A DNA stretch of 64,000 bases from Terracidiphilus sp. (GCA_049977045.1 JBMFHB010000002.1:47355-111354); one strand, 5' to 3'; shown: positions 9,133 to 63,066, counted from the stretch's first letter. Numbers and translations are program-made. The notes: generated from the sequence alone by a model not told the origin.

Positions 9133-9166
9133 CTATCCCCTCAGTCCCTTAGTCCCTTAGTCCCTG
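9133..9166 (-). repeat. tandem octamer (plus-strand AGTCCCTT, about 3 copies) giving TAA/TGA/TAG in three frames at the ackA stop
   Basis: Minus-strand stops read from plus-strand TTA 9149-9151 (native ackA stop), TCA 9141-9143 and CTA 9133-9135. The 8-nt spacing puts them in all three frames. Confidence 0.75.
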
Positions 9167-10330
9167 CCTTTTCACCACTGCCACCGTCTCCCGCGCCACA
9201 ATCGACTCCTCGTTGGCGGGGATGACGAGAACTTTTACCTTGGAGTGCGGCGTCGAAATCTCACCTTCGCCGCCGATCCTCTGGTTGGCCATCTCGTCGA
9301 GATCCATGCCGAAGGCCGCTGTCCCTTTGAGCACTCCAGCGCGAATCGCAGCGCTGTTTTCGCCAATCCCGCCCGAAAACGTGATCACGTCCAGGCCGCC
9401 CAGTTCCAGCATGAACGCGCCCAGGTAGTGCCGGATGGCGTGGACAAAAACATCGAGCGCGAGCTGCGCCCGGGCGCTTCCCCTGGCCGCTGCCTCTTCG
9501 AGGTCGCGCAGATCGCCACTGGCGCCGCTGATCCCAGCCAGGCCCGACTGGCTGCCGAGCAATTTGGCCATCGCATCCGGCCCCATGCCGAGCTTTTTCA
9601 TCATGTGCAGCACGGCGAATACATCGATATCGCCCACACGGTTGTTCTGCGGCAGGCCCGACTGCGGCGAGGCACCCATGCTTACGTCCACCGCAACGCC
9701 GTTGCGAAAGGCGGCTACACTCGAACTGCCACCCAGATGGCAGGAGATGTGGCGCAAATCCTTGCGCGAGAGAAACGCCTGCGTGCGTTCGCTGGCCGAG
9801 CGGTGACTGGCGCCGTGAAATCCATAACGCCGGATTCCATGCTCCGTTCGCCACTCGTAGGGAACGGCATAGGTCGTCGACGCTTCGTCCATGAACCGGT
9901 AGGGAAACGGCTCCATCACCGCGACCAGCGGCACGCCCGGCAACTCCTGCCGGAAACCCTTCATGGCGGCGATATACGGCGGATTGTGCGCCGGAGCCAG
10001 GAAGATAAACTCCTCCATGGCGGCAAGAAACCTGTCATCGACGATCTGCGGTGTATTGAGTGGCCCCGCGTGCACAGCCTTGAAGCCAACAGCCGCAATT
10101 TCGCCAAGGCTCTTGAGCGGCTTGCCCGCTCCGGCAATCTCACTGAGACATTTTCTGATCGCGGCGGGGTAATCGGCGCACTCGCCGCCCGGCTGGCCGA
10201 TGCGCTCCACGCGGCCCTGCGCCAGCACGGTTTCTCCCGGAGCCGACGCACCCGAAGCGTCGATTTCCGAGAGTTCAAGTAACCGGTACTTGAACGAGGT
10301 GCTGCCGATATTGGGGATCAAGACCTTCAT
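9149..10330 (-). CDS. ackA: acetate/propionate kinase
   Basis: MKVLIPNIGSTSFKYRL N-terminal ASKHA motif; full-length 393 aa; no obvious encapsulation peptide. Confidence 0.9.
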   Translation of the reverse strand: MKVLIPNIGSTSFKYRLLELSEIDASGASAPGETVLAQGRVERIGQPGGECADYPAAIRKCLSEIAGAGKPLKSLGEIAAVGFKAVHAGPLNTPQIVDDRFLAAMEEFIFLAPAHNPPYIAAMKGFRQELPGVPLVAVMEPFPYRFMDEASTTYAVPYEWRTEHGIRRYGFHGASHRSASERTQAFLSRKDLRHISCHLGGSSSVAAFRNGVAVDVSMGASPQSGLPQNNRVGDIDVFAVLHMMKKLGMGPDAMAKLLGSQSGLAGISGASGDLRDLEEAAARGSARAQLALDVFVHAIRHYLGAFMLELGGLDVITFSGGIGENSAAIRAGVLKGTAAFGMDLDEMANQRIGGEGEISTPHSKVKVLVIPANEESIVARETVAVVKRQGLRD

Positions 10331-10424
10331 TTTTGACTGTTCTTGATTGAAAATGAATGATACGATAATTTAGTCGCCAGAGTCAATCACTAAATTTGGC
10401 GGTTTTTGAGGGATAATCCGAGGT
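10331..10424. promoter_or_regulatory. AT-rich divergent control region between the ackA-led BMC operon and the pduS/pduT-like pair
   Basis: Marked GC drop. TTGACT (10333-10338), TTGATT (10343-10348), GATAAT (10364-10369 and 10412-10417). Inverted AATTTAG/CTAAATT and TGATTG/CAATCA pairs could be DeoR operators. Confidence 0.35.
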
Positions 10425-11768
10425 ATGACTCCACAAACGAGCATTACCGGACCAACTTCTGCCAGGCTTACCTCCTCGCTCGACCGCATCGAGGAGCTGG
10501 GGATTATCGGCGCCGGCGGCGGCGGCTTTCCCACGGCAGTCAAGTTCAAGGCCCAGGCGCCTCTATTGATTGCCAACGCCGCCGAGTGCGAACCACTGCT
10601 GCACAAAGACAAGGAACTGCTCCACCACCATGCCGAGCCATTCCTGCGCGGCATGACGATGGCGATGCAACTGGTAGGCGCACGTGAGGGCGTCATCGGC
10701 ATCAAGGAAAAGTATTTGGAGATCATTGCCGCGCTCGAGGCGAAGGTTCCAGAGAACATTCGCGTTGCGCCGCTGCCCGACTGCTACCCAGCCGGCGACG
10801 AGTTCATCCTGGTGCACATGGTCACGGGTCGAGTGATACCGCCTGGCGGCCTGCCGAAAGACGTCGGCGCAACCGTCTCCAACGTGGAAACGCTAATGAA
10901 CATCGGCCTGGACCGGCCGGTGACGCACAAGTATCTAACCGTCGCGGGCGCGGTTGCCCATCCCGTGACGCTGCGCGTACCCGTAGGCATCACGATCGGC
11001 GAAGTGATTGAGGCCGCGGGCGGCGCGACCGTTCCCGACTTCGGCGTCCTTCTGGGCGGCGTGATGATGGCCCGGCCCGCCGCCAATCTCGACGTACCTG
11101 TCACGAAGACCACGGGCGGCATCATCGTGTTGCCCGCCGAGCACGCGCTCATCCGCCGGCACAATGCGCCGTGGATGCACATCGCCAGGATTGGCCGGTC
11201 GGCATGCGATCAATGCCGCTTCTGTACCGAGTTCTGCCCGCGCTATCTGCTCGGCCATCCCATCGAGCCGCACATGGCGATGCGCTCGCTGGGTTTCTCC
11301 GAGCCGGGGGATCTTACTGTAGCCACGCTCTATTGCTGCGAGTGCAACCTGTGCACCATGTTCGCGTGCCCCGAGGATCTGGACCCGAAGAACGTTTGCG
11401 TGCAGGGCAAGCCGATTGCGCGCGAGCGCGGACTGACGTGGAAAGGCACACCGGATTCGATCCAGCCGCATCCGATGGCGGAGTTCCGCCGCGTGCCCAT
11501 GCGCCGGCTTATCGCCAAACTCGGTCTGGGCGAGTTTGTGAACGAAGGGCCGCTTACCGAATACAATTTTGCTCCGCGCAAGGTGACGATTCCGCTCAAG
11601 CAACATGCTGGCGCGCCCGCAGCTGCAGTGGTAAAGTGCGGCGACCGCGTGCGCGTGGGCGATCTGCTGGCCGCGCCCGAGCCGGGGCAGCTCGGCGCGC
11701 GCATTCACTCGAGCATTGACGGCCACGTCACGGTGGGCAAGGATGCCGTGGTGATTGAAGCAGTTTGA
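10425..11768 (+). CDS. PduS-like Fe-S flavoprotein (RnfC/NuoF-type nucleotide-binding domain, SLBB, two 4Fe-4S motifs)
   Basis: GIIGAGGGGFPTAVKF glycine-rich motif; CDQCRFCTEFCP and CCECNLCTMFACP cluster motifs. C-terminal IPLKQHAGAP...VGDLL...HSSIDGHV resembles the RnfC N-terminal barrel. Confidence 0.85.
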   Translation: MTPQTSITGPTSARLTSSLDRIEELGIIGAGGGGFPTAVKFKAQAPLLIANAAECEPLLHKDKELLHHHAEPFLRGMTMAMQLVGAREGVIGIKEKYLEIIAALEAKVPENIRVAPLPDCYPAGDEFILVHMVTGRVIPPGGLPKDVGATVSNVETLMNIGLDRPVTHKYLTVAGAVAHPVTLRVPVGITIGEVIEAAGGATVPDFGVLLGGVMMARPAANLDVPVTKTTGGIIVLPAEHALIRRHNAPWMHIARIGRSACDQCRFCTEFCPRYLLGHPIEPHMAMRSLGFSEPGDLTVATLYCCECNLCTMFACPEDLDPKNVCVQGKPIARERGLTWKGTPDSIQPHPMAEFRRVPMRRLIAKLGLGEFVNEGPLTEYNFAPRKVTIPLKQHAGAPAAAVVKCGDRVRVGDLLAAPEPGQLGARIHSSIDGHVTVGKDAVVIEAV

Positions 11769-11780
11769 AGAGATTGCCAC

Positions 11781-11807
11781 TGTTCACTGACCACTGACCA
11801 CTGTTGA
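11781..11807 (+). repeat. heptad repeat (CCACTGA) placing TGA in three frames after the pduS-like stop
   Basis: TGA at 11788, 11795 and 11805 fall in three different frames. The block sits between the stop at 11766 and the GGAG RBS of the next gene. Confidence 0.75.
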
Positions 11808-61748: not shown

Positions 61749-61810
61749 TACAGGGGCCAGGAACCAGGCGCCGAAGCTGCGGGTGAACTGGACCATCTGT
61801 TCAGCGCCCC

Positions 61811-61834
61811 TGACAACTGACTACTGACTACTGA
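61811..61834 (+). repeat. heptad repeat giving four TGA at exact 7-nt spacing between leuA and leuB
   Basis: TGACAAC TGACTAC TGACTAC TGA; TGA at 61811, 61818, 61825 and 61832 cover all three frames. Confidence 0.8.
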
Positions 61835-61852
61835 AAGTTGGAAAGACTCGGA

Positions 61853-62950
61853 ATGAAGCTGAATATTCTTGTCACTGCCGGCGACGGCATCGGCCCTGAA
61901 GTCACTTGCGAAGCGGTTTCCGTTCTGAAGGAAATTGCGGCGCTCGGTGGGCACGATTTTGCATTTATGGAAAAGCGCATTGGCGGCGTGGCCATTGTGC
62001 AGGACGGTACGCCACTACCCGATGACACGCTCGATGCGGCGCTGGCGTCGGATGCGGTTCTGCTGGGCGCTGTGGGCGGCAACGAGTTCAACTCGCTCCC
62101 ACCCTCGAAGCGGCCCGAAGCGGGACTGCTGAAGATTCGCGCGGAGCTGGGTGGATTTGCCAACCTGCGGCCCGCGTTTGCGTTCAAAGAGCTGGCGATC
62201 AACAGCCCGTTGCGCGCGGAGATTATTGACGGCGCCGATATTCTCTTTGTGCGCGAGCTGCTGGGGGGCCTTTACTTCGGCCAGCCACGCGCGTGGGACC
62301 GTGAAAGCGGCGAGTCGTGGAACACCATGCGATACACGCGCGGTGAAGTGGCGCGCGTGGCGCGCGTCGCCTTCCAACTGGCGCAAAAGCGCCGCGGGAA
62401 GCTAACGAGCGTGGACAAGGCCAACGTGCTGGAGGTTTCGCAGTTGTGGCGGGCCACGGTGAATGAGGTTGCGGCGGAGTTTCCCGATGTGACGGTCGAG
62501 CACCAGTATGTGGACGCGATGGCCATGCACCTGATGAATCGCCCGCGCGACTTCGACGTGGTGGTCACGGAGAACCTCTTCGGCGACATTCTGAGCGACG
62601 AGTCGGGCGTGATTACTGGATCGCTCGGCATGTTGCCTTCGGCGACCATCGGCGGCAAGGTCAACTTGTATGAGCCGGTGCATGGCTCGGCGCCGGACAT
62701 CGCGGGCAAGGGATTGGCGAATCCGCTGGGCGCGATTTTGACAGCAGCACTGATCCTGCGCCACTCGGGCGGGCTCGAAACCGAGGCTGCGGCCATCGAG
62801 TCGGCGGTGCGCAAGGTGCTGGAGCAGGGATTCCGCACGTCCGACCTTGTGCGCGGCCAGACGGAGGGAATCACGGCGCTCTCGACGAAGGAGATGGGCG
62901 CGAAGGTGCGGGAGACGGTGAAAGAGCAGCTTCTAGCTGCTAGCCACTAG
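61853..62950 (+). CDS. leuB: 3-isopropylmalate dehydrogenase
   Basis: [17 protein letters not shown] and [10 protein letters not shown] motifs. Confidence 0.95.
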
Positions 62951-63066
62951 CTCCTAGCTTTTTGGCGATAAGGCGCGACGCCATCAACAAACGCAACATT
63001 GAACTCGACTCCGCGCAGAGTCGCAACAGTTTCGATCGGCAAAAAAGAGCTGGTAGCTAGAAGCTG
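62927..63066. repeat. CTAG-rich inverted clamp bracketing the leuB-leuC spacer; the left arm holds four TAG at 7-nt spacing
   Basis: CAGCTTCTAGC (62927-62937) is the reverse complement of GCTAGAAGCTG (63056-63066). TAG at 62934, 62941, 62948 (native leuB stop) and 62955. Confidence 0.75.

Follow-up and report, generated by a model that had tools for sequence, protein, structure and literature searches.

Intergenic heptamer arrays of Acidobacteriaceae show C-T-R/Y-A-G polarity and co-varying stop-to-start hairpins, with no general selection for three-frame closure

Introduction

The stretch of Terracidiphilus sp. DNA analysed here (64,000 nt; GCA_049977045.1 JBMFHB010000002.1:47355-111354) carries tandem arrays of 7-nt units in the spacers between its genes. 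This whole stretch is referred to below as the window, and positions are counted from its first letter. By Pfam, the genes around the arrays encode an acetate kinase followed by a PTAC phosphotransacylase, a PduS-like protein followed by a BMC shell protein, KatG, an ECF sigma factor followed by a zf-HC2 anti-sigma factor, an Fe/Mn superoxide dismutase followed by G6PD (zwf), and an HMGL-like (leuA-type) synthase, Iso_dh (leuB) and an aconitase-family protein (leuC). These assignments agree with the gene labels of a first-pass annotation made from the sequence alone.

That annotation described the repeats as cassettes of stop codons at 7- or 8-nt spacing, selected for three-frame termination between same-strand genes. 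All of the triplets that it listed are present: TGA on the plus strand at 11788/11795/11805, 61811/61818/61825/61832 and 30514/30521/30528; TAG on the plus strand at 62934/62941/62948/62955; TGA on the minus strand, read from plus-strand TCA, at 46680/46673/46666 and 30466/30459/30452; and TAA/TGA/TAG on the minus strand, read from plus-strand TTA/TCA/CTA, at 9149/9141/9133. The listed cassettes also shut all three frames of the transcribed strand. Here, we show that they belong to heptamer arrays with a gene-relative C-T-R/Y-A-G polarity (R, A or G; Y, C or T) and with co-varying stop-to-start hairpins, and that there is no general selection for three-frame closure at such junctions.

Results

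Tandem heptamer arrays lie in the spacers of the window

We called an array where at least three copies of a unit followed one another with at most two mismatches. Tandem Repeats Finder independently reported period 7 at 7926, 11777, 14787, 26402, 30439, 32258, 46660, 61810 and 62928, and period 8 at 9138. Tandem Repeats Finder and our own detector together gave heptamer arrays of at least three copies at 11 sites in the window and at 291 non-coding sites in related loci. When the whole window was searched against Rfam 15 at gathering thresholds, no match was returned. For gene calling, we trained a simple codon-usage caller on long open reading frames; it places stops exactly.

Several arrays stand alone. 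In the spacer between the leuA-type gene and leuB, a start-proximal array of CTGACAA/CTGACTA units (61807..61837, plus strand), with C-T-R on the sense strand, ends 15 nt 5' of the leuB ATG (61853) and is unpaired in the predicted fold (z −0.6); at this position, related genomes have NNACTGA or NNACTAA heptads. CCACTGA/TCACTGA units (11777..11807, plus strand; fold z −1.3) fill the 52 nt that separate the PduS-like gene from the BMC gene, immediately 5' of AAGGAG and the GTG start at 11821. On the minus strand, three sense copies of CCACTGA (46657..46688; fold z −1.2) contain the TGA stop of the upstream gene and precede GGAGGAG and the start of a PP2C phosphatase gene, and an array with sense units GCCACTGA/CCACTCT/CCACTGA/CAACTGA (14787..14816, minus strand; fold z +0.95) lies in the katG 5' region, ~75 nt 5' of the katG ATG at 14710. 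An octamer variant, with three sense copies of GGGACTAA (9133..9167, minus strand), overlaps the acetate kinase stop and is similar to GGGACTA heptamer arrays of the related genomes L016, L030 and L077. A further array, (GAACAGG)n on the sense strand in Y-A-G phase (32254..32281, minus strand), starts 13 nt past the upstream stop at 32295; the first-pass annotation had rightly noted that the repeat here, at 32252-32279, is free of stops. None of these six arrays (61807, 11777, 46657, 14787, 9133 and 32254) is paired or structured; their z values lie between −1.3 and +2.0.

Other arrays come as the two arms of a hairpin that runs from the stop codon of one gene to the start codon of the next. 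The leuB-leuC hairpin (62920-63095, plus strand; −65.9 kcal/mol, z −3.8) has as its 5' arm an (AGCTNCT)n array (62928..62960, plus strand) covering the last codons of leuB and its TAG stop (62948), and as its 3' arm an (AGCTRGN)n array (63044..63076, plus strand) with an AGGAG Shine-Dalgarno sequence at its end, followed by the leuC ATG at 63088. Between the superoxide dismutase gene and zwf, the sod-zwf hairpin (30420-30560, minus strand; −63.5 kcal/mol, z −4.8) pairs a 3' arm of sense (AAGCTGA)n (30448..30476, minus strand) with a 5' arm of sense CAGTTCT/CAGCCTT units in Y-A-G phase (30505..30533, minus strand). This 5' arm is without sense stops, closing no frame on the sense strand and three on the antisense strand; the plus-strand "mirror set" reported upstream of zwf (30514-30528) does exist, as part of this arm, and shuts none of the sense frames.

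The sigma/anti-sigma hairpin (25392-25541, minus strand; −52.2 kcal/mol, z −3.3) has a 5' arm with sense units TTAGCTG/TCAGCCG/TCGGCTA/TCAGTT (25506..25532, minus strand), beginning 3 nt past the TGA of the sigma gene, and a 3' arm with sense units GAACTGA/GAACTGG/TAGCTGA/AAGCTGA (25394..25427, minus strand); the irregular set of stops noted at 25400-25428 is this 3' arm. Finally, the BMC-spacer hairpin (7905-8054, minus strand; −57.2 kcal/mol, z −2.9), between two BMC shell-protein genes, pairs a 3' arm of sense AAGCTAG/AAGCTGG units (7923..7952, minus strand) with a 5' arm of sense CCAGCTT/CTAGCGG/CTAGCTT units (8026..8049, minus strand). The arms at 8026-8049, 25506-25532 and 63044-63076 and the arrays at 7923-7952, 14787-14816 and 26395-26417 were absent from the first-pass annotation. 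The last of these (26395..26417, minus strand) is a short array-like repeat with sense units AAGCTGC/AAGCTGC/CGGCTAC in the divergent spacer 5' of the ECF sigma gene.

Two observations concern the genes that carry these arrays. The C-terminus of the leuB product (..LLAASH*) is encoded within the heptamer array, at 62928-62950, and the array either grew into the 3' end of the gene or defines it. In addition, 7343-12384 is a bacterial-microcompartment locus with three tandem BMC shell paralogues, a PTAC (PduL-type) phosphotransacylase, acetate kinase, a PduS-like flavoprotein and a tandem-BMC protein, and several of its spacers hold heptamer, octamer or 9-mer arrays. The 9-mer is a repeat of 2.5 sense copies of GCTAACTCY (9091..9113, minus strand), directly 5' of the phosphotransacylase start, with every TAA triplet in one single frame.

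Arrays with period 7 are a lineage-wide intergenic class

We then followed the arrays through two comparison sets, 80 genome loci centred on leuB (set 1, 1.37 Mb) and, independently of these, 80 metagenome loci centred on zwf (set 2, 1.04 Mb). The window and these 160 related loci together make up 2.4 Mb. The leuB product of the window is 82-97% identical to those of Acidobacteriaceae and of Terracidiphilus metagenome-assembled genomes. The period-7 arrays of set 1 numbered 155 in 214 kb of non-coding and 22 in 1.22 Mb of coding DNA, and those of set 2 numbered 136 in 191 kb and 13 in 852 kb, respectively. Hence, non-coding DNA has ~0.7 arrays per kb and coding DNA ~0.017, a ~40-fold difference, and the pattern recurs in related genomes, as the first-pass annotation had proposed to check, with 291 non-coding arrays in the 160 loci. 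Non-coding arrays with periods 5, 6, 8 and 9 numbered 11, 20, 28 and 11 in set 1 and 4, 15, 16 and 8 in set 2, such that period 7 is the commoner by 5- to 30-fold. By spacer type, we observed 0.99 arrays per kb between same-strand genes, 0.54 in convergent and 0.33 in divergent spacers; the suggested preference for same-strand junctions is therefore real, at 2-3 times the density elsewhere.

The explanation first put forward for these repeats is that they exist by selection for closing all three frames between same-strand genes of a GC-rich genome, where they would stop read-through or frameshifted ribosomes. The window alone contains four strict runs of at least three stops at 7-nt spacing, a modest excess over the expected 0.67, with a maximum of four among 100 shuffles. 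In 1114 same-strand spacers (160 kb) from the window and the 160 related loci, we counted runs of at least three evenly spaced stops, with dinucleotide shuffles as the reference, and here the excess was overwhelming for period 7 alone. At spacing 7, there were 213 sense runs against 7.4 in shuffles (~30-fold) and 170 antisense runs against 5.2, so the antisense strand is enriched nearly as much. Spacing 8 gave a weak excess (sense 14 against 7.5, antisense 18 against 5.3), and spacings 4, 5, 6, 10 and 11 stood at shuffle level on both strands. The predicted excess over shuffles is thus strong at spacing 7 and weak at 8, but it occupies both strands. A dedicated three-frame stop cassette should be enriched on the transcribed strand in particular and at every spacing not divisible by 3, which is not what we see: spacings 4, 5, 10 and 11 would close the frames equally well and are not enriched. 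Because only spacing 7 is enriched, and on both strands, the signal is that of heptamer arrays and not of frame closure as such.

Spacers devoid of arrays told the same story. In 299 array-free same-strand spacers, the density of sense stops was at shuffle level (900 observed, 913 in shuffles), and all three frames were closed in 73 (24%), compared with 76 in shuffles. Since array-free spacers behave as expected by chance, there is no general pressure for three-frame closure at same-strand junctions in these genomes.

Arrays share a C-T-R core and a gene-relative polarity

The units vary by locus and by genome, with AAGCTGA, AGCTAGR, CCACTGA, GAACTGA, CATCTGT and TTCCCTG among more than 50 canonical forms; the commonest are AAGCTAG, AAAGCTG, AGCTAGG, ACCACTG and AACTGAG. 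An unbiased scan for phased di- and trinucleotides identified two motifs, C-T-R and Y-A-G. Among same-strand spacers, 115 start-proximal arrays had phased C-T-R in 110 cases, Y-A-G in 41 and stops in 101, and the dinucleotide C-T by itself was phased in 111. For the 101 stop-proximal arrays, the corresponding counts were 41, 76 and 54; for 29 arrays in divergent spacers, 22, 6 and 13; and for 36 in convergent spacers, 6, 26 and 16. One rule fits all of these contexts: the sense strand carries C-T-R ahead of starts and Y-A-G behind stops. The stop-free array at 32254..32281 fits the second half of this rule. Scored for polarity, start-proximal arrays were C-T-R in 90 cases, both in 42 and Y-A-G in 5, giving a sense C-T-R phase in 132/144, and stop-proximal arrays were Y-A-G in 77 and C-T-R in 22. 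Counted once per orthologous spacer group, C-T-R prevailed over Y-A-G by 22 to 1 near starts (p = 6e-6), and Y-A-G over C-T-R by 32 to 10 near stops (p = 9e-4).

The first-pass annotation had noted that the unit bases differ between loci while the stop triplet recurs. The former is borne out; the constant part, however, is C-T and not the stop itself. In register, C is kept in 351/356 copies and T in 350/356, and this C is not part of any stop. The two bases that follow are GA in 134 copies, AG in 119, AA in 75, GT in 41 and GG in 12. A purine after C-T-R yields TGA, TAG or TAA, and this is how the stop triplets come about; the phased stops are thus mostly a consequence of the C-T-purine core of the repeat. 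Read on the antisense strand, stop-proximal arrays have the same distribution (GA 71, AG 71, AA 43, GG 6), which could be a simple mirror of their partner arms. Purine-richness alone was also considered as the source of stops and does not fit units such as CCACTGA, CTACTGA and TCTCTGA.

We next sorted the arrays of same-strand spacers by the strand on which their units carry stops. Near starts, 40 arrays had stops on the sense strand only, 3 on the antisense strand only, 65 on both and 7 on neither; near upstream stops, the numbers were 24, 24, 35 and 18. A strand bias relative to transcription is therefore present beside starts and missing beside stops. All three sense frames were closed in 92/115 start-proximal arrays. 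These figures, the phased stops in 101/115 start-proximal arrays, the depletion of CTGG (see Discussion) and the 2-3 times greater density between same-strand genes all speak for selection on three-frame closure, and so does one well-sampled divergent spacer whose arrays lack sense stops much more often (12/21). Yet a backup terminator would be expected right behind the upstream stop, where a read-through ribosome meets it first, and the arrays there have no sense bias and favour Y-A-G, which counts against an origin by selection on stops. Moreover, the C is conserved to the same degree as the T that follows, although this C lies outside the stop, divergent arrays keep C-T-R in 22/29 cases though only 13/29 have stops, sense stops are missing from ~30% of all arrays, and many arrays are hairpin arms. 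Together with the spacing and strand data above, and with frame closure at chance in array-free spacers, these results make it unlikely that the arrays exist by selection for three-frame closure. What stands of the original proposal is a bias towards sense stops beside starts and against CTGG; as the reason for the arrays' existence, it is improbable.

Start-proximal arrays mostly end 0-30 nt 5' of the start codon, and phased ATG or GTG triplets occur in 5 of them on the sense strand compared with 23 when read on the antisense strand. We infer that an orientation filter may operate near the translation start, whereby the orientation with stops and without spurious starts would be tolerated, without being the reason why the arrays exist.

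A near-invariant core also raises the idea that the C-T-R/Y-A-G heptads are binding sites for a regulatory or architectural protein that reads ~7 nt per subunit; a cold-shock-domain protein or ribosomal protein S1 could be the binder on RNA, and a ribbon-helix-helix protein on DNA. The footprint of a cold-shock domain is ~7 nt, and heptads of 7 bp are the binding sites of the plasmid pSM19035 omega repressor. C-T plus purine every 7 nt in otherwise differing units, at the constancy given above, the strict orientation relative to genes and the position of array ends just before start codons would all suit such a protein, and a like proposal has already been made for the TAACTGA repeats discussed below (PMC4679880). 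On the other hand, three conserved bases per heptad hold very little information, the downstream genes are functionally unrelated (leucine synthesis, zwf, katG, microcompartment shell and sigma/anti-sigma), and many arrays are sequestered in hairpins with their own complements. We therefore regard a heptad-reading protein as a doubtful explanation.

Paired arrays fold from stop to start and co-vary

Approximately 60% of array-bearing spacers hold both array types, folding stop-to-start. In both sets, same-strand spacers with arrays had a median fold z of −2.9, with 61% below −2, compared with −0.6 and 23% for array-free spacers (p = 3e-12). In 84 hairpin-type spacers, the long-range stem had a median of 33 pairs, started at the upstream stop codon or a few nt away, and had a median distance of 2.5 nt between its end and the start codon. 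Sense and antisense strands folded with nearly equal energies, the sense fold being the more stable in 55/84, by a median of −3.1 kcal/mol.

We considered whether the paired arrays might be intrinsic transcription terminators or attenuators between genes. The stems are long and stable, and some are followed by T-rich tails, such as GCTGCTTTTT past the arm at 25394-25427 and GTGTTTTGG past the arm at 30448-30476. However, the stems are also imperfect and not GC-rich, most of them extend to the next start codon, and they occur inside apparent operons, for example between leuB and leuC. At least three T within 8 nt past the stem were found for only 11/84 hairpins, indicating that the hairpins are not terminators; we consider this explanation extremely improbable.

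At orthologous spacers, the layout is conserved while the units have changed between genomes, and the two arms change together: ACAGATG/CATCTGT, CAGTTCN/NGAACTG, TCAGCTN/NAGCTGA, CTAGCTN/NAGCTAG and TCAGTGN/NCACTGA are all found as arm pairs. We measured this co-variation without alignment, by folding the 5' and 3' halves of a spacer with each other or with halves from different genomes at the same orthologous spacer. In array-bearing groups, own halves paired better than swapped halves, at −42.5 versus −26.4 kcal/mol (p = 5e-12), −39.0 versus −25.2 (p = 3e-6), −36.4 versus −29.7 (p = 9e-6) and −28.3 versus −22.8 (p = 7.5e-5); no pairing difference was observed in array-free spacer groups.

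Several comparisons bear on turnover. The leuB-leuC spacer of the window (62931-63087) and that of the related locus L001 (~4920-5058) cannot be aligned, while the flanking coding DNA is 94-97% identical; the entire spacer was either exchanged or underwent very rapid turnover. The leuA-leuB arrays of the window and L001 have different units, and both copy number and unit differ at orthologous spacers between species. Within the sole near-identical pair (L126 and L128, >99% identical), the array differs by one base.

Such replacement, where coding DNA is 94-97% identical, and the inverted pairs inside short spacers are also what fragments or terminal repeats of a single mobile family, miniature inverted-repeat or REP-like, might leave behind. 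Arms even match across loci, 7920-7950 with 62922-62952 and 11778-11805 with 46658-46685. But a window-wide repeat search confined these inter-locus matches to the heptads, and the four hairpin loops of the window have no sequence in common; the fragments of one mobile repeat family envisaged as a counter-explanation in the first-pass annotation were not found in the window. Units change by locus and genome while the position at orthologous spacers stays, neither target-site duplications nor an association with a transposase was seen, and the tandem periodicity of the arms is foreign to REP or miniature inverted-repeat (MITE) elements. A mobile family is therefore a very unlikely source of the arrays.

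Other repeats occur in the window and in related loci

Apart from the heptamer arrays, the window contains a 150-nt dispersed repeat in two inverted copies that are 93% identical (19408-19557 and 60115-60264), both intergenic and one of them 5' of the leuA-type gene. It has palindromic modules such as GTCATCCCGAGGAGCGCCGCGACGAGGGATCTGCGG, is without an Rfam match, and may represent either a REP/MITE-like element or a small RNA. Two further tandem repeats, at 44160-44202 and 55811-55853, lie within intergenic DNA or close to it and comprise, respectively, 3.3 copies of a 13-nt unit, ACGGGTAGGCGGC, and two copies of a 22-nt unit.

Eleven relatives (L012, L016, L022, L034, L039, L041, L050, L068, L070, L077 and L078) have a leuA-leuB spacer without heptads. 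A conserved module of two hairpins, GGGCACGRCTTCAGYCGTGCC ... GGGGCTTTAGCCCCTGAGGG, takes their place, right before locus position 10001 or its counterpart, and is a different repeated structured element at this site. In the zwf-upstream spacer of L139 and L147, just before locus position 10001, we found four to five copies of 9-nt direct repeats (GTTAGCGGA), with related GTTAGC/GTCAGC copies beyond a GC-rich hairpin, a layout that differs from the heptad hairpins of other genomes.

Discussion

Overall, our analyses support the idea that the proposed stop-codon cassettes are probably tandem heptanucleotide simple-sequence-repeat arrays, an intergenic class found across the lineage in Acidobacteriaceae, in which stop codons are a by-product or a secondary filter on orientation. 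Selection on stops would be at most such a secondary filter, near start codons. The arrays may originate and turn over by slipped-strand mispairing, which is the explanation given for heptanucleotide repeats generally (PMC4679880). Complementarity between the arms might be maintained by DNA template switching from one arm to the other, by selection for pairing, or by both. Near a start codon, the strand that is tolerated would be the one with stops and without phased ATG or GTG, being unstructured or purine-rich. At the DNA level, template switching in quasi-palindromes would be a neutral route to kept arm complementarity.

Once transcribed, the hairpin may mask the downstream ribosome-binding region, and a ribosome terminating at the upstream stop could open the base of the hairpin, such that neighbouring genes would become translationally coupled. 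This geometry is present at leuB-leuC, where the last leuB codons lie inside the 5' arm. Translational-coupling hairpins between cistrons are known from the phage MS2 coat/replicase junction and from ribosomal-protein operons. As in those systems, the 5' strand of the stem lies at the upstream stop and the 3' strand over the downstream ribosome-binding site. However, the known coupling hairpins are unique sequences, while those described here are repeat arrays that sequester the Shine-Dalgarno sequence in about half of cases and show no strand asymmetry in G.U pairs.

Several observations weigh against our reading of the arrays as slippage products with incidental stops. It gives no reason for the 7-nt period or for the C-T-R core. 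CTGG is rare, at 12 copies versus ~52 expected if the two positions were independent, and this depletion is stop-codon logic beyond what the C-T-R core accounts for. The 40-to-3 excess of sense-only stops near starts likewise leaves room for some selection on stops. As for the hairpins, the Shine-Dalgarno sequence was at least 75% paired in just 35/65 hairpin-type spacers; with only about half of these sites sequestered, translational coupling cannot be the general role. G.U pairs numbered 181 when the sense strand was folded and 163 for the antisense strand; arm complementarity is kept, and the equal counts on the two strands do not speak for RNA-level selection on the hairpin. Finally, start positions from the simple codon-usage caller are approximate. 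For the CTGG depletion, avoidance of Shine-Dalgarno-like sequences was considered as a cause and rejected, given that AGCTAGG units containing AGGAG are abundant.

The depletion of CTGG and the 40-to-3 bias make the data compatible with a further reading, which we hold as tentative and improbable on balance: the arrays would be a genome-wide polar punctuation of operon transcripts, with Y-A-G after stops and C-T-R, usually as C-T plus a stop, before starts, the two pairing with each other, and with the start-proximal stop runs under selection. These runs would insulate, ending upstream or out-of-frame translation just before the ribosome-binding site, and insulation could work alongside hairpin coupling or an RNA-binding protein that reads heptads.

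The first-pass annotation knew of no described natural element of this kind. In fact, similar heptamer arrays are known from Beggiatoaceae (PMC4679880) and from Xanthomonas and Nostoc (PMC4692102). MacGregor (2015) described TAACTGA direct repeats in marine Beggiatoaceae and in some Cyanobacteria and Bacteroidetes; their forward orientation, immediately 5' of start codons, gives stop codons, as that paper remarks, and S1, Csp or CsrA were proposed as binders, with unrelated downstream functions and a role that was not established (PMC4679880). Both kinds of array are made of tandem 7-nt units with an ACTGA core, and the GAACTGA, CCACTGA and CTACTGA units of the window look the same. The start-proximal forward orientation, with C-T-R on the sense strand, is also seen here (132/144). 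Unlike our arrays, the TAACTGA repeats have one dominant unit, heptamers akin to it being seldom repeated, and one indirect set was found against 169 direct sets (PMC4679880). By contrast, the present arrays comprise many units that have only C-T-R in common, ~60% of the spacers that bear them hold inverted pairs, and they belong to a GC-rich genome of another phylum. TAACTGA arrays themselves were absent from the unit tallies for same-strand spacers, which hold more than 50 units.

The heptamers of Xanthomonas and Nostoc, GGGAATC and GGGGAYT, are over-represented in intergenic DNA, chiefly between co-oriented genes, and seldom occur within coding sequences or where genes diverge (Rehm et al., 2015; PMC4692102). 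Their G-rich strand is the sense strand in the 50 bp past stops and the antisense strand in the 50 bp that precede genes. Each genome has 70-75 inverted pairs as potential stem-loops, the repeats are transcribed, and the single or paired state of a site is kept between species (PMC4692102). The preference for co-oriented genes, the position-dependent strand and the frequent inverted pairs are all found here as well, and our (CAGGGAA/TAGGGAA)n and (TTCCCTG)n arrays obey the same positional rule. The Xanthomonas and Nostoc heptamers differ in being one G-quadruplex-forming family with a G3-4 tract in each unit; here, GGG is found in a minority only (CAGGGAA, TAGGGAA and GGGACTA), and most arrays have AGCT, CACTGA or AACTGA cores and cannot form quadruplexes.

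As summarized in these two papers, cyanobacterial STRR heptamers and "long simple sequence repeats" of 5-11 nt have also been surveyed (Mazel 1990; Mrazek 2007; via PMC4679880 and PMC4692102), and in many prokaryotic genomes no class of long repeat is more abundant than tandem heptanucleotides, which are intergenic and attributed to slippage (PMC4679880, PMC4692102). In those summaries, the surveys lack the gene-relative polarity and the co-varying hairpin arms observed here. No description of heptamer arrays in Acidobacteria was found in the literature searched. Because the acidobacterial arrays unite the pictures drawn by MacGregor and by Rehm and colleagues, they belong to an already known kind of element.

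For annotation, such spacers should not be taken as a new termination device. The arrays may encode the final codons of genes, as for leuB here, and the stop-to-start hairpins may influence the expression of downstream operon genes. With diverse units around one C-T-R core, a strict orientation rule and co-varying arms, this lineage provides a natural data set that could test whether the role of the arrays lies in translation, by insulation or coupling, in RNA processing, or whether they are a tolerated product of slippage.

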